Shown: one piece after another, positions 6,118-18,867 of the stretch
Layout of the letters: each line of letters begins with the position of its first letter
Position numbering within the stretch: the first letter of the stretch is position 1
Source: an uncultured virus (IMG/VR IMGVR_UViG_3300037011_000237)
Taxonomy: Duplodnaviria > Heunggongvirae > Uroviricota > Caudoviricetes
Length of the DNA stretch: 36,634 bases
Strand: one strand, 5' to 3'
Virus record (IMG/VR): IMGVR_UViG_3300037011_000237
Made by a program: the position numbers and the translations under genes
The notes under the pieces: model-generated
What the model was told of the DNA's origin: nothing
The model's input: the letters and a program-made list of their open reading frames with translations, nothing else
Database searches by the model: none

Positions 6118-7070
6118 GAATACTTTTAATAGATACAGACAGTAAAATACCTAATATAGCATTAATGAAACTGTCTACCTATCATAAGAATTTAGGTAAT
6201 ACTGTTGATTTTATTAGGTTAAATGATAAACCTTTTGAATATAAAGATACCCATGATATAGCATACGGGTCTATAATTTTTAGTAAAAATAAAAATAATG
6301 TAAAAGGCAATGTTTTTCTAGGTGGCACAGGAGTTTCTTTAACTGATACACTTACAGACGAAGTAGAACACCTTATGCCAGATTATTCTTTGTATCCAGA
6401 GAATATTCATTCTATAGGTTTTTTAACTAGAGGATGTATAAGAGATTGTTCTTTTTGTGTAGTACCTGAAAAAGAAGGACTTATAAGATTTAATGCACAT
6501 GTAACAGAATTTTATAATCCAAACTTAAAAAGAATAAGAATTTTAGATAATAATCTTCTAGCATATAGTGGTTGGAAAGATTGTTTATTAGAATTAGAAC
6601 TTTTAAAAGTACCTATAAAGTTTGAGAATTTTGATTTTAGACTTTTAACTGAAGAAAAAGCGGAAGCAATTTCTAAAGTAAATGTATATGGAGATTTTAT
6701 TTTTGCTTTGGATAATCCAAGAGATATGCCAATATTTAAAAAAATATCTCCTATCCTTACAAAATATTTTCCTCCTTGGAGACCAAAGTTTTATATCTTG
6801 GTTGGTTATAATACTACACTTGAAGAAGATATTAAAAGAGTAAAACTTTGTTGGGATAGAAAATTTTTACCTTATATAACTAGGCATGAGAACTATCTAC
6901 AAAGCGAATATAAAAACTTTTATATAGATTTGTGTGCTTGGTGTAATCAACCTTGGTTTGTAAAAACAGGTGATTTCAGACATTTTATGGGTGTAAGATA
7001 CAAAGAAGGGCATCCAAGAATTAAAGAAGAATCTGATTTATTTGAATATTTATGGAATAAAGGAGAATAA
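6114..7070 (+). CDS. radical SAM protein (phage PNxALMK family)
   Basis: LTRGCIRDCSFCVVPEKEG (CxxxCxxC), N-terminal PNIALMKLS, GGTG, PDYSLYP, LDNN. Confidence 0.85.
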   Translation: MRILLIDTDSKIPNIALMKLSTYHKNLGNTVDFIRLNDKPFEYKDTHDIAYGSIIFSKNKNNVKGNVFLGGTGVSLTDTLTDEVEHLMPDYSLYPENIHSIGFLTRGCIRDCSFCVVPEKEGLIRFNAHVTEFYNPNLKRIRILDNNLLAYSGWKDCLLELELLKVPIKFENFDFRLLTEEKAEAISKVNVYGDFIFALDNPRDMPIFKKISPILTKYFPPWRPKFYILVGYNTTLEEDIKRVKLCWDRKFLPYITRHENYLQSEYKNFYIDLCAWCNQPWFVKTGDFRHFMGVRYKEGHPRIKEESDLFEYLWNKGE

Positions 7071-7072
7071 TT

Positions 7073-7135
7073 ATGTTTGACCCAGAAGAAAAAGAAAAGG
7101 AAGAACACGTTCCGGAAGAAAGTGATGGTGCATAA
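7073..7135 (+). CDS. 20-aa acidic peptide MFDPEEKEKEEHVPEESDGA (not in ORF track)
   Basis: AAGGAG SD 7 nt upstream; its TAA overlaps the next ATG. Confidence 0.55.
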   Translation: MFDPEEKEKEEHVPEESDGA

Positions 7136-7356
7136 TGGATAAAATAGAAGAATTAAAAAATAAATTTTTCAAACAATTAATGGAAGATAATAATACTAAG
7201 TTACAGGACTATATGAATTATTTCTCATATCTTATGTCTGTGGCTTTTAATAATGGATTTGATAAGGGATATGAAAAAGGATATCAAACTTCACTTGTTG
7301 ATTATGATGATGGATTAAATGCCAAAGATATTCCACAATCGGATAACGTAGAATGA
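7135..7356 (+). CDS. hypothetical protein (GFDKGYEKGY repeat)
   Basis: 73 aa, translationally coupled on both sides. Confidence 0.6.
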   Translation: MDKIEELKNKFFKQLMEDNNTKLQDYMNYFSYLMSVAFNNGFDKGYEKGYQTSLVDYDDGLNAKDIPQSDNVE

Positions 7357-7907
7357 AAGTATTAGTTGCCTGTGAATTTTCTGGTGTAGTAAGAGAAGCA
7401 TTTGCTAAATTAGGACACGATGCTTGGTCTTGTGACCTGTTACCTACAGAAATTCCCGGAAAACATTTTGAATGTGATATTTTTGAAGTAATAAATATGG
7501 GTTGGGATTTAATGATTGCACACCCACCTTGTACTTATTTAGCAGTTAGTGGAAATAGATATTATGCAAAATCTGATTTAAGAAAAGAAGCGATTAAGTT
7601 TGTAGAAAAACTTTGGGATGTGCCCGTTGAAAGAATTTGTATAGAAAACCCAATAGGTGTTTTATCTACACAAAGTACATTGGGTAAACCAACCCAAATT
7701 ATTCAACCTTGGCAATTTGGTCACGGTGAAACTAAAGCAACCTGTTTCTGGTTAAAGAATTTACCAAAATTAATTCCAACTGAAGTTGTAAATGGCAGGG
7801 AACCACGAATACATTATATGTCACCATCACCTAATCGTTGGAAAGAAAGAAGTAGAACATATATAGGAATTGCAAATGCTATGGCAGAACAATGGAGTAA
7901 TTTATGA
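7353..7907 (+). CDS. compact DNA cytosine-C5 methyltransferase-like protein
   Basis: VLVACEFSG (motif I-like), AHPPC (IV), IENP (VI), QPWQFG, RSRTY.GIANAMAEQW. Confidence 0.75.
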   Translation: MKVLVACEFSGVVREAFAKLGHDAWSCDLLPTEIPGKHFECDIFEVINMGWDLMIAHPPCTYLAVSGNRYYAKSDLRKEAIKFVEKLWDVPVERICIENPIGVLSTQSTLGKPTQIIQPWQFGHGETKATCFWLKNLPKLIPTEVVNGREPRIHYMSPSPNRWKERSRTYIGIANAMAEQWSNL

Positions 7908-8263
7908 ATTTAAAAGAATATTCTAAAAATGTTGAAAATACTAGAGCGGAATTAGAAAGTAAAGGCGTGAATAATTTACATATGCTTCTTGGAATTGTTT
8001 CAGAAGCAGGTGAATTAGTGGATGTTTTTAAAAAGAACATTGCTTACGGAAAAGAAATAGATTGGGTTAACGTTAAAGAAGAAATTGGTGATTTAATGTG
8101 GTACATAGTAGGATTTTGTAATATTAATGGTTGGGATTTAAACCAAATATTAGAAACCAATTCTGCTAAATTAAAAGAAAGATACCCAGATAAATTTTCT
8201 GAGGACAAAGCATTAAACAGAAATTTAGATGCGGAAAGGAAAATTTTGGAGAATAATAAATGA
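7904..8263 (+). CDS. MazG-like nucleotide pyrophosphohydrolase
   Basis: GIVSEAGELVD..KK, EEIGDLMWY, N..KL..RYP. Confidence 0.9.
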   Translation: MNLKEYSKNVENTRAELESKGVNNLHMLLGIVSEAGELVDVFKKNIAYGKEIDWVNVKEEIGDLMWYIVGFCNINGWDLNQILETNSAKLKERYPDKFSEDKALNRNLDAERKILENNK

Positions 8264-8691
8264 ATATAATATATGATGATTTTCTTAATAATAATTGTAC
8301 TTATACAATAGTAACTACTTGTAATTCTTTTAATAAGTATGGTGAATTAGTTATGGGTAAGGGAGCTGCATTAGCATTTAAAAAGAAATACCCAGAAAGT
8401 AATGTTTTTAGTTCTTTAGTAAAACAAAAAATGGACTCTTCAGGGTATTATGGTTTTATTAGACATGGAAATTTGGGCATTTTTCAGGTAAAATATGATT
8501 TTAAAAATCCTGCTTATTTAGAGTTAATAGAACAATCTGCTCTTGAATTAACTAAATTTGCTAAATCTCATAAAAATTGGACATTTGCAATGAATTTTCC
8601 GGGGATTGGTGCAGGAGAATTAGGTCCAGATGATGTCATGTCCATAGTTTCTAAACTACCAGATAATGTTTTTCTGTACATAAGAGAATAA
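8260..8691 (+). CDS. macrodomain (ADP-ribose binding/hydrolase) protein
   Basis: VTTCN...GELVMGKGAALAFKKKYP, FQVK, FPGIGAGEL. Confidence 0.75.
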   Translation: MNIIYDDFLNNNCTYTIVTTCNSFNKYGELVMGKGAALAFKKKYPESNVFSSLVKQKMDSSGYYGFIRHGNLGIFQVKYDFKNPAYLELIEQSALELTKFAKSHKNWTFAMNFPGIGAGELGPDDVMSIVSKLPDNVFLYIRE

Positions 8692-8693
8692 GA

Positions 8694-11093
8694 ATGTATT
8701 TTAAAGATGTAAGACCAATATCAGAACCAGCAATGAATATTCTTAGGAAAAGATATTTTTTACCCACAGAATCTTCATGGAAGGATATAGTAAATAGAGT
8801 TATTACTACTGTCCTAGGTGATTGTAAGGATGAGGAACAAAAAGAACTAACTACAGAAATGATTATCAATAGATATTTTGTTCCTAATTCTCCTTGTTTA
8901 GTAAATAGTGGAAAAGAAAATGGAGGTCTTGCCGCTTGTTTTGTTATAGATTTTCCTGATACTATTGAAGGAATTTATAGAACTAAATTTGATTTTGCTA
9001 GAATTGCAAGAAAAGGTGGGGGTTGTGGAACAACTCTAAGTAAATTAAGACCGGAAGGTGCAATAGTAAGTGGTTCTGCACATGGATATGCAGGTGGTCC
9101 AATTAAATTTGCCGATACTGTTTCTCATGATATGGATGCTTTAACTCAATCAGGATTTAGAGAAATGGCTGTCTTATTTTCTATGAGTGTATATCATCCA
9201 GATATTTTAAAATTTATTAATGCTAAATCAATAGAAGGAAAAATTTCAAACGCAAATATATCTGTAGTAGTTGACAATAATTTTATGCAATTAGTAGAAA
9301 ATGATTCTGAATATCACACATTTTTTATGTATGAAGATGGACCCAAACAAGGTCCAACATATAAAGCAAGAGATATTTTCAATTTAATAGTGGATGGTGC
9401 TTGGAAAAATGGTGAGCCAGGAATTTTATTTTATGATAGAATGAATAATTCTCCATATAAATATTCTAAACAAGAAATTATGACTTGTAATCCTTGTTTA
9501 TCTGGAAATACTTTTATTCAAACAGTAGAAGGAAAAATAAAAATAAAGGATTTGGTAGGAAAAGAAATTGATGTATATTGTATGTCCGATGATGGAACAT
9601 TAGAAATTAGCAAGGCAATTAATATTAGAAAAACAAAAATAGATGCACAAATAATTAGGGTTCAAACAAGTAGAGGTCATATTATTTGTACTCCAGACCA
9701 TTTAATTTACACAAAAAATAGGGGTTATGTTCAAGCAAAAGATTTAACTTTAAAAGATAGATTAGTAGGACTATGCAGAAAAATGCATGGAGAACATTAT
9801 TGTTCTGTTTCTCTTACTGGAAATAATAAATATGAAAAAGAACATAGATTTATAATGAGACATTATTCAGATATATCAGATAAAATAGTACATCATATAG
9901 ATGGAAATTTTCTAAATAATATAAAATCTAATCTAGAACCATTGGACAGACTATATCATAATAGTGTTTCTAATCTCAACCACTTAGATTGGAATGAACA
10001 TGATTCTTTAGGAAGATTTATAAAAAAAGATATTCATAAGAAAAAACAACAATTACAACTAGAGGGTAACTTTCCAAAAGGGTCTAACTTGTCTATTTTA
10101 GGAATAGAACATTTGCCATATAAAGAAGATGTATATGATATGGAAGTAGAAAAATATCATAATTTTATTGCAAATGATTTGATCGTTCATAACTGCGGAG
10201 AACAAGGACTTCCTTTTAATGGTGTTTGTAACTTAGGTTCTTTAGATATTTCTAAATTTCTTATAGAAGATAAAATTTTAGATTTAAAAAAATTAGAGGT
10301 TGCTGTTAGATTAGGAATTAGATTTTTAGATGCAGTTATTGACAAAACATCATATCCTACAGAAGAAATTGAAAGATGGTCAAAAAATAATAGACCTGTA
10401 GGATTAGGTATAATGGGAATAGCAGATTATTTTCTAATGAAAGAACTTGCTTATGGTTCTGATCAATCATTGGGAGATTTAGCATTTGTTCTGGATTTTA
10501 TTTATAAAATTGCAGAAGATGAATCTATAAAACTTGGAGAAGAATATGGAATTCCAAAAGCCTGTAAGAAATTACCAAGTCCCAGAAGGAACATTACTCT
10601 ACTCACTGTTGCACCTACAGGAACAGTTTCGCTTATTGCTGGTTGCAGTTCTGGAATCGAGCCAATTTTTTCAGAAATTGTTATTAGGAATGACAAAACT
10701 GGTACATACACTTTCGAAAATAATTTAGCAGAAATGCCATATTTTAGATGTGCAGTTTCTGCTAATGGTGCTACAGAAGTAACTTGGGAAGAACATGTTA
10801 AAATACAAGCAACCGCACAAACATATGTAGATTCTGGTGTTTCTAAAACAATTAATTTCCCTAATCATACACATAGGGAAACTATTTATGATGCTTTTAT
10901 TTTGGCATGGAAATTAGGTTGTAAAGGTTTAACTGTTTATAGAAACATGAGCCGAAAAGTTGAAGTTCTTACTCCGAAGAATATTAAAAAGAATTTGTGT
11001 CCTGTTTGTGGTAAAGAACTAATTGAAATAGATAGTATTAAAAAATGTCCAGAAGTTTCTTGTGGATTTATATTAACCGAAATTTCTCAATAA
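8694..11093 (+). CDS. nrdJ: class II (B12-dependent) ribonucleotide reductase with intein and C-terminal Zn ribbon
   Basis: PNSPCL.N, LAACF, GGGCG, NANISV, GEPG, NP/CGEQ, CNLGS, GLGIMG, TVAPTGTVS, SKTIN, C-terminal CPVCG...CPEVSCG; no beta subunit nearby. Confidence 0.88.
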   Translation: MYFKDVRPISEPAMNILRKRYFLPTESSWKDIVNRVITTVLGDCKDEEQKELTTEMIINRYFVPNSPCLVNSGKENGGLAACFVIDFPDTIEGIYRTKFDFARIARKGGGCGTTLSKLRPEGAIVSGSAHGYAGGPIKFADTVSHDMDALTQSGFREMAVLFSMSVYHPDILKFINAKSIEGKISNANISVVVDNNFMQLVENDSEYHTFFMYEDGPKQGPTYKARDIFNLIVDGAWKNGEPGILFYDRMNNSPYKYSKQEIMTCNPCLSGNTFIQTVEGKIKIKDLVGKEIDVYCMSDDGTLEISKAINIRKTKIDAQIIRVQTSRGHIICTPDHLIYTKNRGYVQAKDLTLKDRLVGLCRKMHGEHYCSVSLTGNNKYEKEHRFIMRHYSDISDKIVHHIDGNFLNNIKSNLEPLDRLYHNSVSNLNHLDWNEHDSLGRFIKKDIHKKKQQLQLEGNFPKGSNLSILGIEHLPYKEDVYDMEVEKYHNFIANDLIVHNCGEQGLPFNGVCNLGSLDISKFLIEDKILDLKKLEVAVRLGIRFLDAVIDKTSYPTEEIERWSKNNRPVGLGIMGIADYFLMKELAYGSDQSLGDLAFVLDFIYKIAEDESIKLGEEYGIPKACKKLPSPRRNITLLTVAPTGTVSLIAGCSSGIEPIFSEIVIRNDKTGTYTFENNLAEMPYFRCAVSANGATEVTWEEHVKIQATAQTYVDSGVSKTINFPNHTHRETIYDAFILAWKLGCKGLTVYRNMSRKVEVLTPKNIKKNLCPVCGKELIEIDSIKKCPEVSCGFILTEISQ
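9495..10193 (+). mobile_element. intein (233 aa) with HNH endonuclease in the RNR active-site NPCGE loop
   Basis: starts CLSGNT, block B CTPDH, HNH HHIDGNFLNN..SNL, ends VYDMEVEKYHNFIANDLIVHN followed by Cys. Confidence 0.92.
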
Positions 11094-11134: not shown

Positions 11135-11803
11135 ATGCTCGCTGGTGGTACTAGAGTGTTATCTGTATATGAAGGTGCAATTTCTATTGCTGATATTATT
11201 AAAAGAGATAGAAAAGAAGTACTATTATATTCTTTTGATGATGAAACAAAACTTCCTGCACTTGCTAGAATAGAAGAAATTATCGAAACAAGTGAAGATT
11301 GTGTTTTTGATATTGAATTTGATTCTGGATTAAAAGTTCTTTGTTCTGCTACTCAAGAATTTCTTACATTTAGAGCATATCCACAACAGGCAAATACTTT
11401 ACAAACAGTACAATCAATCAGAGCATTTTCTATGTCATTACATAAAGATGGACATTATAGAGTTCATGGATTTGTTAATAATAAACCAAAACATCAGTAT
11501 GTTGCTAGAATGGTTTGGGAATATTTTAATGGTAAAATACCAAAAGGTATTATTTTGCACCACAAGGATTACAATAAGTTGAACAACCATATAGGTAATT
11601 TTGAATTGGTTTCAAACAGTTTGCACAGTTCTATTCATGCAGATGATAGAAGAAATCATAAAATAACCACTATTATTTCTAGTATAGGAAATGACCATCC
11701 AATAAAAATGTATTCATTTATTTTAGATAAACATAATTCTATTGTTGTTGCAGATGATACGCCAGTTGCTGGATGTAATTCTGGTATATTTGTGAGGAGT
11801 TAA
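11135..11803 (+). CDS. free-standing degenerate Hint (intein-like) protein with HNH domain
   Basis: MLAGGTRV resembles block A with Cys1 replaced by Met; block B CSATQEF lacks TxxH; HNH LHHKDYNKLNNHIGNF; block F/G-like end MYSFILDKHNSIVV...GIFVRS-stop. Confidence 0.7.
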   Translation: MLAGGTRVLSVYEGAISIADIIKRDRKEVLLYSFDDETKLPALARIEEIIETSEDCVFDIEFDSGLKVLCSATQEFLTFRAYPQQANTLQTVQSIRAFSMSLHKDGHYRVHGFVNNKPKHQYVARMVWEYFNGKIPKGIILHHKDYNKLNNHIGNFELVSNSLHSSIHADDRRNHKITTIISSIGNDHPIKMYSFILDKHNSIVVADDTPVAGCNSGIFVRS

Positions 11804-12618
11804 TGTATAAAGTAACAGAATGTAAAAACCCAAAATATTTTTTATCTTGGGGGAAGGGATTACAGTCCACTTGTTTAGGGGTAATGGCAACACAAGGATT
11901 AATAAAAAAACCAGATGCAATTATTACTTCCGAAACAGGCTGGGAACATCCGCATACTTATGTTGCACAAGAATATTATAAAAAATATTTTGAGGATAAT
12001 AATATTCCTGTTTATATAGTACAAGAGGGAGATATAAAAAAATCTATAGGACTAGAAAGAATTACTTTGCCTTTATGGAATAATAATACTGGAGCACCCC
12101 TACAAAGAAGATGTACCTTTTTTTATAAAATTAAACCACTCAGAAAAAAGGCTAGAGAACTTTGTGGTCTTAGATTAGATAACAAAGGTAGAACTTTAAA
12201 AAATACTATTATTTTATATTTGGGAATTTCATATGACGAAGCAGAAAGAATGAGAGATTCTGATAGAAATTACATTAAAAATGAATACCCACTTATTGAT
12301 TTAAAGTGGACCAGAAATGATTGTGCAAATTATCTTTTATCTTTAAATCTTCCAGTTCCTATGAAGAGTGCTTGTGTAATTTGCCCATATAAAGATACTA
12401 AATTTTGGGAACATACTAAACTTACTTATCCAGAAGTATTTAAAGAAGCTATTATATTTGACGAAAAAATTAGAACACCACCAAAAAATATGGTAGATAG
12501 AGGATATAACTTTAAATTATTTGTATATAAAAAATGTATACCCCTTTCGGAAGCTAATTTTTCTACTGAAATAAAAGAAAAACAAGATATTTGTGACGCC
12601 GGTTATTGTTTTGTATAA
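11803..12618 (+). CDS. PAPS-reductase-like / PP-loop (HUP) family protein
   Basis: LSWGKGLQST, ETGWEHP, RRCT..YKIKP, GISYDEAER, YPLID, PMKSACVICPY, C-terminal CDAGYCFV. Confidence 0.7.
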   Translation: MYKVTECKNPKYFLSWGKGLQSTCLGVMATQGLIKKPDAIITSETGWEHPHTYVAQEYYKKYFEDNNIPVYIVQEGDIKKSIGLERITLPLWNNNTGAPLQRRCTFFYKIKPLRKKARELCGLRLDNKGRTLKNTIILYLGISYDEAERMRDSDRNYIKNEYPLIDLKWTRNDCANYLLSLNLPVPMKSACVICPYKDTKFWEHTKLTYPEVFKEAIIFDEKIRTPPKNMVDRGYNFKLFVYKKCIPLSEANFSTEIKEKQDICDAGYCFV

Positions 12619-12692: not shown

Positions 12693-13001
12693 CTAATCTA
12701 TTTCTATTTCTGAATCATCTAAACCATAATTTGAATAAAATATTTCTTCTAATTTTGCTTCAAAACCAGTATCTTCGAATTCACATCCTAGTAATATAGC
12801 ATCTCCTTTTATATCATTTATATAGTCCATTACAAATTCTGGAGAATCAAAATCTTCCAGTGGAATAATTTCATATATTATTCTTTTTTCTACCTCCGGT
12901 AAATATAATATAATATAAACTTGAGGTTCTTCTACTTCTTCAAAACCAGGAGTTACTCCAGTATCTACATCTACTATTAATTTTGCACCATTAGAAATCA
13001 T
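12693..13001 (-). CDS. highly acidic hypothetical protein
   Basis: 102 aa, D/E-rich; last gene of the minus-strand operon. Confidence 0.65.
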   Translation of the reverse strand: MISNGAKLIVDVDTGVTPGFEEVEEPQVYIILYLPEVEKRIIYEIIPLEDFDSPEFVMDYINDIKGDAILLGCEFEDTGFEAKLEEIFYSNYGLDDSEIEID

Positions 13002-13395
13002 TATAACTAATCACTCCTTTTTTTTCTTCATGCAAATAATGTTCTCTTAATGAATTTGCATCAAATGAAGAATTTTGTTCCGCATCTGTATAAACAATAA
13101 TACAATTTGTATCCGGAAGTTTCCTTATCCTATTATAAGTTAAATCAATATAATTTTCTCCTTGAGCAATTGTTCTATAAAATGAAAACTCATCCATATT
13201 ATATTTACTAGAGTGTAATTCTATAAGTAATTCTTCGGTTAAATCAAAAACATCTTGTCCTTCATATAAATATCTTCCAAGTACAATAATATTTTCTACA
13301 TCATTCATAGTAAGATCATCAAAATTTACCTCCTCTCCTATAAGAAGAAAACTACTACTGCTTGAATTTGAAACAAATCCTTGTCTTACTTTCAT
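12991..13395 (-). CDS. MKxRxGFVSNSSS-motif protein 4 (134 aa)
   Basis: internal start MKVRQGFVSNSSSSSF with AAGGAGG SD. Confidence 0.8.
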   Translation of the reverse strand: MKVRQGFVSNSSSSSFLLIGEEVNFDDLTMNDVENIIVLGRYLYEGQDVFDLTEELLIELHSSKYNMDEFSFYRTIAQGENYIDLTYNRIRKLPDTNCIIVYTDAEQNSSFDANSLREHYLHEEKKGVISYNDF

Positions 13396-13611
13396 GTTAC
13401 CTCCTTGATTAGTTGCTAATAAATATAAAAAACAAAAAACTGGAGCAATTAAAACACTCTCTGCCAAACTAAAAATAAGTAGAATACTTCTTGGAACCAA
13501 ACCTAAAATTAGATTACTTAAAGAAAACGTATCAAATCCAAATATCCATATAATAAAAAAAGTAAGAAACCCTTTTAAAACAAATTTTAAATTAATTTTT
13601 TTATCCATCAT
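13396..13611 (-). CDS. hydrophobic membrane segment, in frame with motif protein 4 (no intervening stop)
   Basis: GGAGG SD before ATGATG at 13611; two hydrophobic stretches. Confidence 0.55.
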
Positions 13612-13909
13612 ACCAACCTCCATAATGAATTCCAATTTCCTCAACAGGAACATTTAATCCGATATTTGATAAAGCATACATAACTCTATGTTTAAATTCA
13701 TTTAAAGTTTCATGTTCAAACATTTTAGTTATTTCTAAACCAATAGCACATAAATCTCCAGCCTCATCTGTAGAACACACATCTATTATAGAATCGTTAT
13801 AATAAGTTTCAAGATCATTCTCAGTAAATTCACTTTTACGTTTAATAATACCAGTAATACAAAAACTTGTTGAAGAACTATTAGAAACAAATCCCGTTCT
13901 AATTTTCAT
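13601..13909 (-). CDS. MKxRxGFVSNSSS-motif protein 3
   Basis: starts MKIRTGFVSNSSSTSF; AAGGAG SD. Confidence 0.85.
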   Translation of the reverse strand: MKIRTGFVSNSSSTSFCITGIIKRKSEFTENDLETYYNDSIIDVCSTDEAGDLCAIGLEITKMFEHETLNEFKHRVMYALSNIGLNVPVEEIGIHYGGWYDG

Positions 13910-13919
13910 TTTTCTCCTT

Positions 13920-14210
13920 TCAACTATGCCACCAGTTTATATCTTTCGATTTTACACCAATACTTCCAAGAAAATTATTCATATCAAAGTTATCCATAGC
14001 ACACACTCCAAGTATATTACCATCACGTTCTGTAATTTCCCATTCATCATAGTTATTAAGTTCATAATTATCCGGATTTCCAAATCCTGAATGTTTTGAT
14101 ATTTCAAAATGATTTTGTATTTGTAATACTTGTAAATCTGTTAATTTACTTTTACTAATAATAAAAGAACTGCTTGAAGAATTAGAAACAAAACCTGTTC
14201 TAGTTTTCAT
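13920..14210 (-). CDS. MKxRxGFVSNSSS-motif protein 2
   Basis: starts MKTRTGFVSNSSSSSF. Confidence 0.85.
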   Translation of the reverse strand: MKTRTGFVSNSSSSSFIISKSKLTDLQVLQIQNHFEISKHSGFGNPDNYELNNYDEWEITERDGNILGVCAMDNFDMNNFLGSIGVKSKDINWWHS

Positions 14211-14216
14211 ATCATT

Positions 14217-14417
14217 TTATTCCTTTACTAATTTAAGACGAACTAAACAACCTTGTTGTTCAAATTCAGAAATATGTGCTAAATATGGCTGGTTATTATT
14301 ATCTTTATAATAAATAACAAATTCTGCATCACCAATAACAGCACCCTGTTCACAAAAATAACCCAAGCTTCTTGATTCTTCAAGTAGTTTGGCTATTTCT
14401 TTAGAAATCTTTATCAT
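14217..14417 (-). CDS. hypothetical protein
   Basis: 66 aa, AAGGAG SD. Confidence 0.6.
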   Translation of the reverse strand: MIKISKEIAKLLEESRSLGYFCEQGAVIGDAEFVIYYKDNNNQPYLAHISEFEQQGCLVRLKLVKE

Positions 14418-14429
14418 TATTTCTCCTTT

Positions 14430-14966
14430 TTAATGATATTCTTGTGTCCAAATAGCACTATTTTCTAATGCTTTTAATTCTTCAGGCAATTCTCCACCCA
14501 TCCCTTCATCCGATTCCCTAAAGAATAAAATATTATCTAAACCATGTTCACTAATTATTTCTTGGATTTCATTTGCTAATTCTTCAAAAATACTAAATGC
14601 ATCATTATCACGATCTGCTTCTTTTCGTAAAAATTTTATATACTTCATTAAATCATTACCAAAACAAATGGAAGTATATCTACCTAAATCACGCTCATGT
14701 GTTTTTAATATGGGTGCATATTTAACATAATGTTTAATTTTGATTGTACCAGAAACGGAATGATTTACAAAAATAAATCCATCATTTAATAGGCGTGCTT
14801 CCTTTTGCGCTTCAAAATCTACCCCAGTATTATTTTCTCTTTCAAAGATAACCTCAGTATCTTTTACTTCATAATTATAATTTGCTAAATGCCTATTAGT
14901 ATCATTTAATACTACTATAAAACTACTGCTACTTGAATTACTTACAAAACCTGTACGAATTTTCAT
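14430..14966 (-). CDS. MKxRxGFVSNSSS-motif protein 1
   Basis: starts MKIRTGFVSNSSSSSF; AAGGAG SD. Confidence 0.85.
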   Translation of the reverse strand: MKIRTGFVSNSSSSSFIVVLNDTNRHLANYNYEVKDTEVIFERENNTGVDFEAQKEARLLNDGFIFVNHSVSGTIKIKHYVKYAPILKTHERDLGRYTSICFGNDLMKYIKFLRKEADRDNDAFSIFEELANEIQEIISEHGLDNILFFRESDEGMGGELPEELKALENSAIWTQEYH

Positions 14967-15258
14967 CTCTCTCCTTTTTTAGAAACTCAATTGCACATTT
15001 TAAAGAACAGAAACTTCTAGAATTTTGTATTAAAACTTTATTTTTAATCTCAAAATATCTATTACTTTCCATATCAGTTATTTTACTCCACTCTTCATCT
15101 GTAACTAATTCTGGTTTATAATGCCAACCAGAATGTAAAATAGCAAAGTTATTAAATTCTTTATTATGATTAGCAAGTACTTTTTGAGTTAAAACTATTT
15201 GTACTATTGGTTCATTACAAGAATCTTCTGTACAATTTGCACATTCATACATTGTCAT
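14938..15258 (-). CDS. putative Zn-finger protein (CxxC...FCSxxC, TRASH/MYM-like)
   Basis: CANC near the N-terminus and FCSLKC near the C-terminus. Confidence 0.55.
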   Translation of the reverse strand: MTMYECANCTEDSCNEPIVQIVLTQKVLANHNKEFNNFAILHSGWHYKPELVTDEEWSKITDMESNRYFEIKNKVLIQNSRSFCSLKCAIEFLKKERDENSYRFCK

Positions 15259-15260
15259 AT

Positions 15261-15320
15261 TTAATCTCCATCTTCCATAATTTTAGAATCCAATTCTTCA
15301 TCATATTCTTCTGGGTTCAT
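15261..15320 (-). CDS. 19-aa acidic peptide MNPEEYDEELDSKIMEDGD (not in ORF track)
   Basis: GGAGG SD; fills the gap between neighbouring ORFs. Confidence 0.6.
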   Translation of the reverse strand: MNPEEYDEELDSKIMEDGD

Positions 15321-15396
15321 TATTATCCTCCGGTTATTCCATCAATGATATCATCAGTTAATATTTGTTCTAATTCTTCATCATATTCTTCTGGGT
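15292..15396. repeat. 25-bp direct repeat (15292-15316 and 15372-15396) encoding PEEYDEEL
   Basis: aattcttcatcatattcttctgggt twice, 80 bp apart. Confidence 0.9.
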
Positions 15397-15403
15397 CATT
15401 CAT
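15323..15403 (-). CDS. 26-aa acidic peptide MNDPEEYDEELEQILTDDIIDGITGG (not in ORF track)
   Basis: AAGGAG SD immediately after the radical SAM stop. Confidence 0.6.
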   Translation of the reverse strand: MNDPEEYDEELEQILTDDIIDGITGG

Positions 15404-15414
15404 TTATTTTCTCC

Positions 15415-16395
15415 TTATATTGTATATGCTGGACAATTTCTTCCACTATCAAGTAAAATATTTCTCCATAAAACTACAGAAGGATTATACCAAACATCCT
15501 GTAAAAAATCTTTACAATCTACTACACTTATTCCTTCATTATTTTCTGTAAAACTACATGGATAAAATGCTCCTTTTACATTAATATAAGCACTAAATAA
15601 ACCAGATTCACATGGTTCTACATATTCTTCTAATTCACACCATCTAGGATTTTTTTTAATATAATCCATAAATTTATTTGCAGTACAACTATCAAAACCA
15701 AATCTAATTCCATTTTCTAGTAAAATATCTACTAAATTATCAAATTCAGGAGTAGTTATAGGATGATAAGAAACCCCTCTACCTCTTTGTTTCAAAGAAA
15801 GAAATACAACAGCGTTTAAATTTTCCAATCTTGCATCATTTTGTATATCATATAAAAGCTTATAAACAGGAATTAATGTTTCTTTAGAAAGTAATTGGTG
15901 AATATTTGCTTGTTTTAATCCCTTATCAGTAAGTGTTTTAATTGCTGAATAACAAATTGGTTTATTATAATTACTTACAGAAACTGCTCCACAAATACCT
16001 GCCAAAAATGTTGACCAATCTTCATTTAAAAAAGAACCATTAAAAGTAATATTAGGAATAACATTGTGTTTTCTACAATATATCATCATTTTTTTCAAAT
16101 CCATATTTGCATTTAAATCTCCTACACCAAAAGCAACTTGTGTTAAATTACCTTTAACCTTATCAAAAATTATCTTAAATGTTTCAAAAGACATATTTTT
16201 TCCAATTACAGCATTACTTTTGTAACAAAAATTACAAACCCTATGACAAATAGTAGAAACTTCTATATCTAATATTTCTGGTCCAATTGGAGAAAAATCC
16301 GGATCATCTACTGTTGTTCTTCCCCATCTATTAAATTGTCCAGTTTCCAAATCAAACTTCCATTTATAATCTTTTGAATTAAAAATTCTAATCAT
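15415..16395 (-). CDS. radical SAM protein with SPASM/Twitch domain
   Basis: GPEILDIEVSTICHRVCNFCY (CxxxCxxC); C-terminal CESGLFSAYINVKGAFYPCSF ... CPAY. Confidence 0.9.
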   Translation of the reverse strand: MIRIFNSKDYKWKFDLETGQFNRWGRTTVDDPDFSPIGPEILDIEVSTICHRVCNFCYKSNAVIGKNMSFETFKIIFDKVKGNLTQVAFGVGDLNANMDLKKMMIYCRKHNVIPNITFNGSFLNEDWSTFLAGICGAVSVSNYNKPICYSAIKTLTDKGLKQANIHQLLSKETLIPVYKLLYDIQNDARLENLNAVVFLSLKQRGRGVSYHPITTPEFDNLVDILLENGIRFGFDSCTANKFMDYIKKNPRWCELEEYVEPCESGLFSAYINVKGAFYPCSFTENNEGISVVDCKDFLQDVWYNPSVVLWRNILLDSGRNCPAYTI

Positions 16396-17083: not shown

Positions 17084-18280
17084 TTAGTAAATTACTCCAT
17101 CTAATTTTAGTGATTCAAGAAATCTAGTTTCAAATTCTTTTGGAGTCATATATTTAAACATCGTTTCATAATTACATCTGCAAGGATGCATAAAATGTTT
17201 TGTACACATACGCTTTATTCCTTTTCCTTCACTTGAAATTTTTTCTGCACACGCATTACATAATCCATAATGTATATGTAAATCTAAATAAGTAATATGT
17301 GTTCTACAAGAACAACAAATACTATATTTTAGTTTATTTGTATTAAAAATTTTATTATCTTTAATAACATACACATCCTCCATCCTTTTAAAAAATAATC
17401 CTCCCTTTCCTTTTATTACAATCATTGCACTTTTAACAGGATTATAATAAGAAGACACCATTCTTTTCTGATATTCATAATCATCTATCTCTGTGCTTTG
17501 AGTTTTAAATCCTTTAATAATACCAAATTTTGTTGGATAAAATGAAACTACTTCATCATCTTTCTCACAACCTAATTCTTTTTTAATTAACTCCCTCATA
17601 GATTCCATTTTATATTTAACAAAAATATTAGAATGATAATATAAAGAAAACATAATATCTGTTTGTTTATATGTACGGTTATGAAATGCCAAAAATACTT
17701 TATTACATAGCTCTATATCATCTAAAAGTAAAACATTCTCAGGAGAAAATGCGTATTCTATTCCACGATAACAATAATTAACACCTAACCAATAGTTATT
17801 AACTTCTGAAACTAAGCTACAAAAATCTCTTTCTGTAGTATTCATTACTTTTTTACGATCACAAGGTATACTTTTACTGTACACTTCTTCAGATAAAGAT
17901 AATAATCTAAATAAACAATGAATACCATAATATAAATATTTTTTATATTCATATTTATTATTAAGTTCTATAGTTAATAGAATAGACTTTGCATTATTAT
18001 TATTTTCTTGAACATAAACACTACGATCTCCAAAAGTTATTGGAGAAATGGCTACTATTTTAATTTTAATATTTTTAAAGGAATCATTAAATGATTGTAT
18101 AACTTCTTCTATATAATCTGGTACAGCATCCCATCCAAAAATAAAATATTTAGCTGAACCATTATAAGAACTCCAAAATTGGTCAAAACAACCAGCACGA
18201 ATAAGTTTGGGTTCGACAGAAGTAAAAAGTTTAAAATCTAGTTCATCAGAAAAAGCATAATTAGTATGAAATGAGATCAT
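17084..18280 (-). CDS. hypothetical protein with Cys-rich C-terminus
   Basis: 398 aa; CCSC...CNAC...CTKH..HPCRC. Confidence 0.65.
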   Translation of the reverse strand: MISFHTNYAFSDELDFKLFTSVEPKLIRAGCFDQFWSSYNGSAKYFIFGWDAVPDYIEEVIQSFNDSFKNIKIKIVAISPITFGDRSVYVQENNNNAKSILLTIELNNKYEYKKYLYYGIHCLFRLLSLSEEVYSKSIPCDRKKVMNTTERDFCSLVSEVNNYWLGVNYCYRGIEYAFSPENVLLLDDIELCNKVFLAFHNRTYKQTDIMFSLYYHSNIFVKYKMESMRELIKKELGCEKDDEVVSFYPTKFGIIKGFKTQSTEIDDYEYQKRMVSSYYNPVKSAMIVIKGKGGLFFKRMEDVYVIKDNKIFNTNKLKYSICCSCRTHITYLDLHIHYGLCNACAEKISSEGKGIKRMCTKHFMHPCRCNYETMFKYMTPKEFETRFLESLKLDGVIY

Positions 18281-18867
18281 AATTCTTTTTCTAACTCCTT
18301 ATAAAAGTTTTCTGGTTCTAGTATTTTATTCCAAAATTCAGAATATATTAATTCTGGATGAAACTGAAAGCCTAATATCTTTAGTTTCGGATGAAATATT
18401 GCTTCAGTTAATTTATCCTTGGTGTTTCCTAAAGGATAAAAACCAGATGCTAGTTGTTTAATTCCTTGATGATGCATAGAATTTGTTTCTGGAAATATTT
18501 TTTCTAATATTTTACTCCCCCATTCAAAACCTGCTTGAGTATGACACCAATCTATATCTTGATATAAAGTACCACCAAAGAAAACATTAATTAATTGAAG
18601 TCCTCTACAAGTTCCCAAAATTGGTTTTCTATATTTAACAGCCAACCCTAATAAATTATATTCCACTGCATCCCGTTCATTATTATAACAAGAACTAATA
18701 TTTTTTTCTTTATATCTTGCTGGATTTATATCTTCTCCTCCTGTAAATATAACCAACCTAGAATTCTTTACTTGTTCTTCTATTCCTTTTTCATACAATA
18801 AATAAATACGCTCATTAAATTTACTTTGAAAAGCATGGAAAAAACAAGAATAACTTAATAGAATCAT
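18277..18867 (-). CDS. class I glutamine amidotransferase / peptidase C26 (gamma-glutamyl hydrolase-like)
   Basis: FTGGEDINP..Y, RD..E, PILGTCRGLQLINV..GGTLYQD, NSMHHQG, GFQFHPE. Confidence 0.92.
   Translation of the reverse strand: MILLSYSCFFHAFQSKFNERIYLLYEKGIEEQVKNSRLVIFTGGEDINPARYKEKNISSCYNNERDAVEYNLLGLAVKYRKPILGTCRGLQLINVFFGGTLYQDIDWCHTQAGFEWGSKILEKIFPETNSMHHQGIKQLASGFYPLGNTKDKLTEAIFHPKLKILGFQFHPELIYSEFWNKILEPENFYKELEKEL

Follow-up and report, generated by a model that had tools for sequence, protein, structure and literature searches.

What does a radical SAM enzyme do beside a set of phage proteins that share nothing but their first residues? The question is raised by a virus of the Caudoviricetes known from an uncultured sample record (IMG/VR IMGVR_UViG_3300037011_000237), whose 36,634 nucleotides are referred to here as the window. 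According to the ORF list, four genes on its minus strand encode proteins that open with the tag MK.R.GFVSNSSS.SF. The features of the module are the following.

15415-16395, minus strand: radical SAM enzyme, 326 aa (ORF list)
14938-15258, minus strand: untagged Cys-rich ORF, 106 aa, between the enzyme gene and tag gene 1
14430-14966, minus strand: tag protein 1, 178 aa, N-terminus MKIRTGFVSNSSSSSF
14217-14417, minus strand: untagged ORF, 66 aa, between tag genes 1 and 2
13920-14210, minus strand: tag protein 2, 96 aa, N-terminus MKTRTGFVSNSSSSSF, 'MDNFDM' family
13601-13909, minus strand: tag protein 3, 102 aa, N-terminus MKIRTGFVSNSSSTSF, 'DDET..QFK..WYDG' family
12991-13395, minus strand: tag protein 4, 134 aa, N-terminus MKVRQGFVSNSSSSSF
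14919-14951, minus strand: tag core GFVSNSSSSSF of protein 1 (pattern match)
14163-14195, 13862-13894 and 13348-13380, minus strand: equivalent tag cores of the other three proteins (pattern match), the last in protein 4

The length of tag protein 4 is counted from an ATG internal to a 220-aa ORF (12991-13653) that includes the string NQGGN-MKVRQGF. A AAGGAGGA-like ribosome-binding site precedes this ATG inside the longer ORF, and position 13395 is the true start. The 106-aa ORF overlaps the start of tag gene 1 by 29 nt; it had no family match in Pfam, PHROG and further family searches and no homologue in other tag loci, and its membership in the module is uncertain. The 66-aa ORF had no match in Pfam or PHROG.

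A degenerate back-translation of the tag matched the window four times, against 0.00 matches expected from 100 shuffles, and a looser six-frame scan of the window found no fifth in-frame tag. In the matched strings, the mix of TCN and AGY serine codons differs among the four DNA copies, so the tag is conserved at the protein level. The residues invariant among the four proteins lie almost only at positions 1-16 in a MAFFT alignment, and both this alignment and profile-profile comparison of the families show the proteins to be dissimilar past the tag. The observation made in the first-pass annotation is thereby confirmed: co-oriented genes with a common N-terminal tag, a radical SAM ORF directly upstream of them, divergence beyond the tag, and conservation of protein rather than recent duplication of DNA. 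Its interpretation, that the tag is the recognition and modification site of the enzyme, is partly supported, as described below.

The tag behaves like an N-terminal module that is portable among protein families. Four tag families aligned with hhalign over their first 20-35 residues only, and profile-profile comparison detected no homology between families beyond that point. The tag heads a leucine-rich repeat (LRR) protein, zinc-ribbon-like CxxC proteins and membrane-anchored proteins, and bacterial tag proteins of 467-742 aa have a hydrophobic segment directly after it. Among 240 distinct tag proteins from 79 enzyme-anchored viral loci, R4, G6, S9, N10, S11 and S12 are present in 240/240 (the search pattern partly fixed the G, N and serine classes, but not R4, K2 or the Met spacing), and Met lies exactly nine residues ahead of N10 in 226. 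Position 7 is aromatic in this set (F in 236, Y in 3, W in 1), is H in one bacterial variant tag, and is Leu in a few relatives.

AlphaFold2 models of two window proteins were otherwise confident, with mean pLDDT of 86.7 for tag protein 1 and 78.7 for tag protein 3, yet residues 1-11 fell below 50 in both. The first strand is at residues 13-19 and 13-24, respectively, and the order of secondary structures differs between the two models; that of tag protein 1 matched no known fold. The first-pass annotation had said that a motif serving just as a core strand of a common fold would refute its proposal; with its low-confidence residues 1-11, the unlikeness of the families past it and the variety of proteins that it heads, the tag is not simply such a strand. 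As for the individual families, that of tag protein 1 is characterized by RESDEGMGG and a C-terminal EYH; the tag protein 2 family is the most widespread (24 locus groups), its Atlas matches being viral hypothetical clusters only; and the tag protein 3 family occurs in 22 locus groups, its profile without the tag retrieving 2271 representative clusters. Tag protein 3 itself weakly matches a PHROG annotated as a virion structural protein, a match that holds for only 1 of 20 members of its family.

The enzyme has the CX3CX2C motif (C50, C54, C57) and a C-terminal Twitch-like cluster motif (C237, C262-x12-G275-x4-C280, C321), and these cysteines are invariant across 28 homologues. It scored below the cut-off for Pfam Radical_SAM (E = 3.6e-4; 21.2 bits against 29.5), reached no curated family cut-off in the family scans, and matched phrog_7293, a family of unknown function, at 1.3e-77. 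The profile of the phage enzymes gave weak matches to the twitch region of BtrN (E = 0.008) and to SkfB (E = 0.014). The earlier label 'SPASM/Twitch' holds in its second half: besides CX3CX2C there is a CX12GX4C half-motif, but the full SPASM motif, CX2CX5CX3C, occurs in none of 89 phage-type homologues or in the window enzyme, which is thus Twitch-like rather than full SPASM. Bacterial homologues exceed the SPASM cut-offs (TIGR04085, 38.2 against 27; PF13186, 28.4 against 21.5), and the best partial matches of one, among the best 25 of 54, were the peptide/protein maturases MftC (1.1e-26), WgkB (3.9e-21) and PqqE (1.9e-18). Only about 45 residues precede CX3CX2C in the window enzyme, and an RRE-type recognition domain is absent.

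The first-pass annotation had named frequent occurrence of tag proteins apart from this radical SAM family as evidence against its proposal. The counts show the opposite. The enzyme profile retrieved 80 viral loci, of which 74 had at least one tag ORF within 8 kb on either side, and the tag ORFs of enzyme-anchored viral loci were all on the enzyme's strand; the usual position of the enzyme is directly upstream of the tag genes. Starting from the tag, 36 of 49 well-flanked locus groups, each covering 8 kb or more, contained the enzyme (30 in the locus itself, 6 at another place on the contig). The remaining 13 groups are fragmentary, 2-40% complete by CheckV, and all four tag-anchored records that are at least 77% complete have the enzyme. 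De novo clustering of the loci recovered the enzyme and tag families only, and other window genes recur in no more than three other locus groups. Adjacency is not obligatory, since phage RB16 has two tag genes approximately 20 kb from the enzyme. Phages carry the tag in arrays: the window has four copies, and one viral contig has at least 10 tag matches. In addition, residue 9 of the tag covaries with the enzyme clade: it is Ser wherever the enzyme is of the phage type (89 of 89 loci) and Thr in 24 of 29 loci with the divergent enzyme type. Since essentially two clades account for this covariation, the pattern could stem from shared descent.

The system is not confined to phages. The enzyme clade (E <= 1e-80) occurred in 11 of 401 Bacillota genomes, with a tag gene adjacent in 11/11 (nine recognized by profile and two, with the variant tags MKIKMDFVTNSSSESF and MKISIDHVTNSSSESF, by eye), and the other 390 genomes had no tag match at E <= 1e-5. 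Bacteria have one tagged protein and the enzyme, on chromosomes and a plasmid, and an Avs-like STAND NTPase is often their neighbor; an Avs2-like STAND gene lies directly upstream of them in 14 of 16 loci. The gene order is STAND-p136-tag-rSAM. Other bacterial loci (L251, L263, L275, L242, G611 and G658) are two-gene cassettes in which enzyme and tag are adjacent and no STAND gene is nearby. Given the phage arrays and these bacterial neighborhoods, the module is probably part of the conflict between phages and their hosts.

The pairing of enzyme and tag most likely represents an unstudied protein-modification system, and a single radical SAM maturase that recognizes and modifies many tagged substrates is the reading we moderately favor. 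In this reading the enzyme, a radical SAM protein that ends in an auxiliary Fe-S domain of the Twitch/SPASM type, would recognize M-K-x-R-x-G-F-V-[S/T]-N-S-S-S-x-S-F, strictly at the N-terminus of otherwise unrelated proteins, and would most likely modify it through hydrogen-atom abstraction. The first ~12 residues may form a flexible peptide able to enter the enzyme, with residues ~13-19 beginning the first strand of the downstream domain. The invariant V-[S/T]-N-S-S-S core is the candidate site. Two candidate chemistries, each with a mass change of -2 Da, are an aromatic-to-C-beta cross-link within aromatic7-V8-[S/T]9, as in triceptides, and a dehydrogenase reaction of the anSME/BtrN type that oxidizes a Ser/Thr side chain. 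The specific analogy with anSME drawn earlier fails at the substrate, as the tag lacks C/S-x-P/A-x-R. The genomic coupling, the portability of the tag and its covariation with the enzyme clade are shown by the data, whereas the role of the tag as substrate and the choice of chemistry are what we infer; the coupling would fit equally well if the tag proteins served the enzyme as partners, regulators or scaffolds. The literature search found no publication on this tag, and the earlier statement that the motif has no characterized function still holds within the literature and databases searched.

Among the other explanations, a chance low-complexity similarity or a functionless recent local duplication might be suspected from the serine-rich motif and from the commonness of tandem paralogues in phages. 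The shuffle statistics (four matches against none expected), the occurrence at hundreds of independent phage and bacterial loci and the enzyme-anchored co-occurrence refute this, the unlike serine codon mixes speak against it as well, and we give it virtually no weight. Very improbable, too, is a reading in which a single divergent superfamily has conserved the motif as its catalytic or structural core, such as a phosphate-binding or nucleophile loop that follows strand 1, with the enzyme no more than a pathway neighbor. Such a core would suit the first beta-strand modeled at residues ~13-19 in both proteins, the aromatic-His/Asp endings of several families (EYH, ISHH, WYDG), whose position could be close to the N-terminus, and the retention of the tag in 133 of the best 150 relatives of the 102-aa family found without it. 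However, the most conserved part, residues 1-11, is modeled as unstructured, the two models arrange their secondary structures in different orders, the family profiles compared show no similarity beyond residue 20-35, and the tag sits on LRR, zinc-ribbon-like and transmembrane proteins.

Two further alternatives accept that the tag is functional. It could be a docking or targeting signal for a reader other than the enzyme (an NTPase of the STAND/Avs type, a step in export or membrane insertion, or T4-like virion packaging), while the enzyme would act on another substrate of the pathway, a small molecule or nucleic acid. The STAND genes directly upstream in bacteria point this way, as does Avap2 of the KpAvs2 operon, which physically binds the STAND protein (PMC11564622); the signal-anchor-like hydrophobic segment of several large bacterial tag proteins and the weak virion match of the 102-aa protein can be added. 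Phage loci and many bacterial cassettes nevertheless keep enzyme and tag adjacent with no STAND gene nearby, residue 9 follows the enzyme clade, and the virion match is limited to one family member in 20. The tag appears to have no T4-type protease site. We consider this explanation unlikely. Still less probable, in our judgment, is that the enzyme has the tagged proteins as its obligatory partners, be they activators, specificity subunits or carriers, whose tag plugs into it and whose variable domains steer it to different targets. The same co-occurrence data fit, and LRR and zinc-ribbon-like modules are typical of binding proteins. But a flexible Ser-rich peptide at the extreme N-terminus is more substrate-like, membrane-anchored proteins with large non-cytoplasmic-looking regions would be odd adaptors, and no SPASM/Twitch enzyme is known to use exchangeable adaptor subunits.

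Modification of the tag by the enzyme would have partial precedents. Like MftC, PqqE, WgkB, SkfB, anSME and BtrN, the enzyme combines a CX3CX2C core with a C-terminal auxiliary-cluster domain, and, as with radical SAM maturases, one enzyme is genetically linked to motif-bearing polypeptides; that it acts on the tag is our proposal. Unlike in those systems, the enzyme would act on entire folded proteins (90-740 aa) rather than on short precursor peptides, the motif is at the extreme N-terminus, and the enzyme has no RRE-sized N-terminal domain. The internal proteins of phage T4 are likewise diverse, fast-evolving tandem proteins with a short conserved N-terminus, a capsid-targeting sequence that is read by the prohead and cut off by the prohead protease without any radical SAM enzyme; the tag, in contrast, also occurs beside the enzyme on bacterial chromosomes and a plasmid. 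Triceptide (three-residue cyclophane) synthases act on aromatic-X-X motifs (PMC11499958), and aromatic7-V8-S/T9 would fit aromatic1-X2-X3, with a possible cross-link at the C-beta of X3 (-2 Da). The parallel is purely a chemical analogy; the family scans revealed no kinship to triceptide synthase families among the best 25 of 54 matches.

In the NTPase-dependent 'VMAP ternary' conflict systems, FxSxx C-terminal peptides accompany a radical SAM-SPASM gene (Kaur et al., eLife 2020, PMC7159879). There, too, a short conserved motif on highly variable precursor proteins is coupled to a radical SAM enzyme, and the tag contains F-V-S-N-S; but the FxSxx motif is extreme C-terminal and released by a peptidase, whereas the tag is extreme N-terminal and no peptidase is linked to it in phages. 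The bacterial tag loci resemble the KpAvs2 operon of Klebsiella pneumoniae, found in defense islands and composed of the Avs2 STAND nuclease, Avap1 (radical SAM) and Avap2 (DUF6375-like) (Bechon et al., Nat Commun 2024, PMC11564622): each has a radical SAM protein, a small protein of ~130-140 aa and an Avs2-type STAND NTPase. Differently from KpAvs2, the window has no STAND gene and phages have tag arrays rather than one copy. Pfam DUF6375 (PF19902) matched none of 34 tag-protein members at E <= 10 and nothing at the tag loci of five genomes. By eye, in translations of the published KpAvs2 inserts, the start of Avap2, MKIWNGYGSEHS, agrees with the tag at M1, K2, I3, N5, G6, aromatic 7, S9 and S12, and Avap1 has F-D-x-N-T-G ahead of CX3CX2C, where the window enzyme has FDLETG and a Veillonella homologue FDENTG. 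Possible homology of Avap1 and Avap2 to the enzyme and tag proteins is a lead, not a result. In KpAvs2 the radical SAM partner was dispensable against one phage, and the small protein binds the STAND protein; if the systems are related, this would argue for a role of the small protein that goes beyond being a substrate.

The enzyme, a radical SAM protein, opens a gene module on the minus strand of the window, in which four genes (tag genes) encode proteins that start with the tag, a 16-residue N-terminal motif, MKxRxGFVSNSSSxSF:

15415-16395, minus strand: radical SAM ORF, 326 aa (the enzyme), first gene of the module
between the radical SAM ORF and the 178-aa tag gene, minus strand: Cys-rich ORF, 106 aa
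14430-14966, minus strand: tag gene, 178 aa, protein starting MKIRTGFVSNSSSSSF
between the 178-aa and 96-aa tag genes, minus strand: ORF, 66 aa
13920-14210, minus strand: tag gene, 96 aa, protein starting MKTRTGFVSNSSSSSF
13601-13909, minus strand: tag gene, 102 aa, protein starting MKIRTGFVSNSSSTSF
start at 13395, minus strand: tag gene, 134 aa, protein starting MKVRQGFVSNSSSSSF

The first-pass annotation had reported four tag genes with differing mixes of TCN and AGY serine codons and products that show no likeness past the tag. All three observations were borne out: the window holds four matches to a degenerate tag DNA pattern (0.00 expected from shuffles), the codon mix of the tag serines differs among the four DNA copies, and the proteins give no meaningful alignment past the tag. 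A looser pattern scan found no further in-frame copy in the window. Pfam, NCBIfam and PADLOC contained no family for any tag protein scanned, and the match to PHROG phrog_7397 (unknown function) is confined to the tag. A lead to a virion structural protein (phrog_16130) was dropped, as it holds for 1 of 20 family members. GenBank phages gave no match to the region by megablast or to the 178-aa protein by tblastn, searches in which the low-complexity filter probably masks the tag.

The module is flanked by a PAPS-reductase-like protein (11803-12618, plus strand; Pfam 2.8e-5, phrog_424 1.9e-36), a 398-aa Cys-rich protein with no family in Pfam or PHROGs (17084-18280, minus strand) and a Peptidase_C26/GATase protein (18277-18867, minus strand; 1e-32); none of these three genes recurs with the module at other loci. 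A 799-aa ORF (8694-11093, plus strand) resembles by eye a ribonucleotide reductase into which an intein is inserted, with junctions C...SGNT ... VHNCGEQ. The ORF after it, of 222 aa (11135-11803, plus strand), shows an HNH-like stretch by eye and could represent a free-standing intein or what is left of a homing endonuclease.

Tag and enzyme are coupled in viruses. Searching IMG/VR for the tag DNA pattern gave at least 152 stretches; 151 loci and the window formed at least 106 groups with at least 269 distinct tag proteins, many of which are incomplete at 116 aa, being read from 648-base stretches. Among the matches listed, the richest contig has 10 tag matches, and 30 of the 49 tag-anchored groups with at least 8 kb of sequence contain an enzyme homologue (E 1e-60 to 1e-99 in most cases), which as a rule sits immediately upstream and in the same orientation. 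When whole contigs were searched for the remaining 19 groups, the enzyme was found elsewhere on the contig in 6. The 13 groups without it are all fragments, estimated to be 2-40% complete, and no tag-bearing record at least 77% complete lacks the enzyme among the matches listed. The enzyme-anchored set was drawn from 126 viral stretches with an enzyme relative, of which 80 were kept, some of them near-duplicates or overlapping the tag-anchored set. At least one tag ORF lies within 8 kb on either side in 74 of these 80 loci, and every such ORF is on the strand of the enzyme. Clustering of all ORFs at the loci returned the enzyme and tag families only, and none of the other window genes occurred in more than three other groups. 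The co-occurrence expected in the first-pass annotation, which had proposed the tag as the recognition or modification site of the enzyme, was found from both directions (74/80 enzyme-anchored loci and 36/49 tag-anchored groups).

The tag is strongly conserved. Among 240 distinct tag proteins in 79 enzyme-anchored loci, R4, G6, S9, N10, S11 and S12 are each present in 240/240 and K2 in 235; position 7 is aromatic (F/Y/W) in all 240, followed by V/I at 8 and S at 9, and the initiator Met stands exactly nine residues ahead of N10 in 226. Across variants, the invariant core reduces to V-[S/T]-N-S-S-S-x-[S/N]-F. The proteins behind the tag are diverse, and the following families recur:

'MDNFDM' family: 24 groups, including the 96-aa protein of the window
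'DDET..QFK..WYDG' family: 22 groups, including the 102-aa protein of the window
CxxC zinc-ribbon-like family: 20 groups, absent from the window
'SDNDG..LEHG..ISHH' family: 18 groups

The tag also heads an LRR protein, proteins of 227-507 aa that belong to no family, and proteins of 467-742 aa with a hydrophobic segment after the tag. A profile of the 102-aa family built without the tag retrieved 2271 representative clusters; among the best 150 of these, 125 carry a canonical tag and 8 a variant tag. Most of the other 17 are entries of 60-104 aa whose start falls within the domain, perhaps because the gene was called too short. Within this family, the tag is obligatory.

Two models were used to examine whether the motif originates from a shared fold. 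AlphaFold2 models of the 178-aa (pLDDT 86.7) and 102-aa (pLDDT 78.7) proteins both have low-confidence, unstructured residues 1-11 and a first strand from residue 13, and the order of secondary-structure elements in one is unlike that in the other. Neither matched a known fold: Foldseek against the PDB had no hit at E <= 0.001 with the 178-aa model; in VIA-align wide, the best Z was 6.4 over 47 residues with this model and 4.2 with the 102-aa model. Profile-profile alignments between tag families are confined to the first 20-35 residues. A shared fold was thus not found, with the two models differing and the families aligning only over residues 1-20/35. From the unstructured residues 1-11, the unlike element orders, the short alignments and the varied proteins that carry it, we conclude that the tag is a portable N-terminal module, with a second half that merges into strand 1, and not the core of one shared fold.

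The enzyme belongs to the radical SAM superfamily (PF04055) by its CX3CX2C motif, the ligand motif of the SAM-cleaving 4Fe-4S cluster. The three cysteines (C50, C54 and C57) are invariant or at least 90% conserved among 28 homologues. The Pfam match of the window enzyme (E 3.6e-4, 21.2 bits) is under the cut-off of 29.5, and a Veillonella homologue, with 49 bits, is over it. A complete SPASM domain has the seven-cysteine motif CX9-15GX4C, gap, CX2CX5CX3C, gap, C and binds two auxiliary clusters, and Twitch (BtrN-like) is a shortened SPASM-like C-terminal domain with a single auxiliary 4Fe-4S cluster. C237, C262, C280 and C321 are invariant among the 28 homologues, and C262-x12-G275-x4-C280 forms a half-SPASM motif. 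The CX2CX5CX3C half occurs in 0/89 phage-type versus 19/29 divergent, mostly bacterial, homologues. The window enzyme has no SPASM Pfam match at E <= 0.1; bacterial homologues are over the TIGR04085 and PF13186 (SPASM) cut-offs. Since CX2CX5CX3C is missing in all 89 phage-type homologues, we tentatively classify the window enzyme, on its cysteine pattern, as Twitch-like, with full SPASM in divergent, mostly bacterial, relatives. Of the initial assignment to radical SAM enzymes with a SPASM/Twitch domain, the radical SAM part stands, a Twitch-like domain is probable, and the full SPASM motif is absent.

Other searches placed the enzyme in phrog_7293 (function unknown, 1.3e-77) and gave weak partial NCBIfam matches only. 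Among PDB sequences, BtrN in its twitch region (E 0.008) and SkfB (E 0.014) are the only plausible, though weak, matches of its profile; pentatricopeptide rows are regarded as spurious, being summed repeats of one 35-residue stretch. Anaerobic sulfatase-maturating enzymes (anSMEs) act on a C/S-x-P/A-x-R motif on a sulfatase. The enzyme does not fit this class: the tag lacks the motif, no anSME family is among the NCBIfam matches listed for the enzyme and its bacterial homologue, and no sulfatase among the window genes scanned with Pfam and PHROGs. RiPP radical SAM maturases with an RRE carry an N-terminal PqqD-like element and act on a short precursor made of leader and core. Here, about 45 residues precede CX3CX2C, Pfam matches of the enzyme and the bacterial homologue include no PqqD/RRE family, and the presumed substrates, unlike those precursors, are whole proteins.

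In GenBank, 172 phage records encode the enzyme, among them Escherichia phage RB16, many T4-like phages of Klebsiella, Enterobacter, Cronobacter and Citrobacter, and Vibrio phage D479. The D479 enzyme has a tag protein encoded 1.4 kb upstream. In RB16, the enzyme (RB16p156) is about 20 kb away from the tag proteins RB16p106 and RB16p111, and all three are annotated as hypothetical. Between the two RB16 tag genes is RB16p109 (locus L231, 3921-6140), a 739-aa protein annotated as vWA-like, and a vWA-like family recurs in 5 viral tag-locus groups. This neighbour is of interest since the conflict systems of PMC7159879 also include vWA proteins. A 178,077-base contig in a Flagellimonas marina assembly (L248/L249) encodes tag proteins near-identical to RB16p106 and RB16p111 and looks like a T4-like phage genome within a bacterial assembly, not a chromosomal locus. 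An assembly labelled Promethearchaeota (L280, 2640-3908) encodes a 423-aa protein that joins the tag to internalin-like leucine-rich repeats and directly follows a phage-type enzyme (E 3e-142).

Bacterial and archaeal assemblies contain at least 143 stretches with the tag pattern, some clearly phage contigs. One cellular arrangement comprises a STAND NTPase, a protein of ~136 aa (~121-142 aa in the examples below), a ~131-137-aa tag protein starting MKIRNGFVTNSSSTSF, a radical SAM/SPASM protein and a ~302-aa protein; its carriers are Veillonella parvula, Acetatifactor muris, Verrucomicrobia and other MAGs, and an Agrobacterium tumefaciens plasmid. Examples of the operon are:

locus L259, 3648-10346
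locus L235, 5672-12605
locus L372, 3553-8005

Of the 16 loci with this arrangement, 14 have the STAND gene immediately upstream. Two STAND genes scanned with PADLOC matched Avs2 models (E 1.2e-17 and 9.3e-16), and an Avs1a/LmuA-like metallo-beta-lactamase gene precedes the STAND gene in both. SIR2, Macro, SUKH and type IV restriction genes are found in the surroundings. No family was found for the two small untagged proteins of the operon (~121-142 and ~302 aa). At the three example operons, the STAND N-terminus is trypsin-like or 'SMEK' and the surroundings are defence-island-like.

In the second cellular arrangement, a single large tag protein comes after the enzyme, and in many cases a transmembrane-like segment follows the tag. 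Such a hydrophobic segment was seen directly after the tag in proteins of 467-742 aa (L251, 5823-8048; L252; L288; L290; L374, 4282-5685; L375, near 3100), an arrangement that would put the tag on the cytoplasmic face of a membrane-anchored protein. Among these large proteins are one with a lipobox-like LGSC and one with a long stretch of DGT-rich repeats. In a Hungatella MAG (L293, 6924-8786), the enzyme and a 262-aa tag protein form a single 621-aa ORF; the near-identical L263 has two overlapping genes (6925-8001 and 8001-8786), and the single ORF may reflect a genuine fusion or an error in the sequence.

An even sample of 401 Bacillota genomes was searched. The enzyme clade is present in 11, and a tag gene adjoins it in 11/11 (a profile detected nine of these tag genes; the other two, with variant tags, were spotted by eye). 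None of the other 390 genomes, which lack the enzyme clade, has a tag match, and the possibility raised at the outset, that tag proteins commonly occur without this enzyme, found no case there.

Residue 9 of the tag covaries with the type of enzyme. Loci with phage-type enzymes have Ser at this position in 89/89 cases, and those with divergent-type enzymes have Thr in 24/29. This covariation fits direct reading of the residue by the enzyme, and shared descent is an alternative explanation, because essentially two clades underlie the data. A complex prediction for the enzyme and the 96-aa tag family scored 0.63 against 0.76 for one control with another protein in place of the enzyme, and thus speaks neither for nor against the pair. 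The best-supported reading, which we consider fairly probable, is that the enzyme has the tag as its substrate. Candidate chemistries would be a cross-link on aromatic7-V8-S/T9, as made by triceptide synthases, or Ser/Thr oxidation of the anSME/BtrN type.

The tag system is real, widespread and undescribed in the sources searched, and the bacterial contexts suggest a role of the module in phage-host conflict. In a bolder scenario, which we regard as unlikely, tag and enzyme would be a shared currency of this conflict, with both sides using matured tagged proteins. On the bacterial side, an Avs-like STAND immune sensor would have as its accessory a single tagged protein, matured by the radical SAM enzyme. 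On the other side, large phages (RB16/RB43-like T4 relatives, Slopekvirus-like Klebsiella phages and jumbo phages) would bring their own enzyme and an arsenal of up to ten or more tagged proteins, which, matured by the same chemistry, could engage or block that host immunity as effectors, decoys or mimics. Whole proteins would then carry a new kind of post-translational mark at their N-terminus.

If the tag is the substrate, one radical enzyme would mark many unrelated proteins on a wide scale, and radical SAM maturation would extend from short RiPP precursors to full-length proteins. The scale is indicated by the 2271 clusters from the tag-less profile of one tag family and by the 172 sequenced phage isolates with the enzyme. 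RB16 and the T4-like phages of Klebsiella, Enterobacter and Cronobacter used in therapy research are tractable carriers, and a portable 16-residue N-terminal tag could become a biotechnological handle.

The first reading knew of no characterised function of the motif, and this holds for the literature searched: queries that included motif strings found no paper describing the tag, in a coverage mostly outside subscription journals. In glycyl-radical enzymes, the glycine loop R-V-x-G-[FYW] belongs to a large barrel protein. This reading is rejected for the tag, whose R-x-G-F is one residue shorter, and also by the size of 90-200 aa and the G6D bacterial variants. Triceptide synthases cross-link aromatic1-X2-X3 motifs (PMC11499958), to which aromatic7-V/I8-S9 of the tag (T9 in the divergent clade) corresponds. 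This triceptide (3-CyFE) likeness is one of substrate motif alone, from which the chemistry does not follow, and no cyclophane-synthase family is among the NCBIfam matches listed (the best 25 of 54 for the bacterial homologue). The nearest conceptual precedent comes from Kaur et al. (PMC7159879), who predicted that radical SAM-SPASM enzymes modify C-terminal FxSxx peptides within conflict systems built on NTPases; the tag itself holds F-V-S-N-S.

The closest published system is the KpAvs2 operon of Klebsiella pneumoniae (PMC11564622), which encodes the nuclease-NTPase Avs2, the radical SAM protein Avap1, needed against some phages, and the DUF6375-like Avap2, which binds Avs2. Avap2 starts MKIWNGYGSEHS in the printed inserts, resembling the tag by eye, and F-D-x-x-T-G precedes CX3CX2C, again by eye, in both Avap1 and the enzymes studied here. 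PF19902 (DUF6375) matched 0/34 members of the tag137 family at E <= 10 and nothing at the tag loci of 5 genomes; the published DUF6375 assignment used HHsearch, which is more sensitive than our PF19902 search, so that distant kinship may have been missed. A PF19902 search of 400 genomes of one class had no hit, nor had its control genomes, and carries no weight. With no PF19902 match and a likeness read by eye, the possible kinship of the tag proteins with Avap2, and of the enzyme with Avap1, is a lead only. A STAND gene is adjacent in 14 of 16 bacterial loci, but not in the window, where PADLOC and Pfam found no STAND or Avs among the module proteins scanned. The bacterial versions next to Avs-like STAND NTPases bear on the role of the radical SAM accessory in the KpAvs2 operon, and we suggest that phages carry a mirror image of this type of module.
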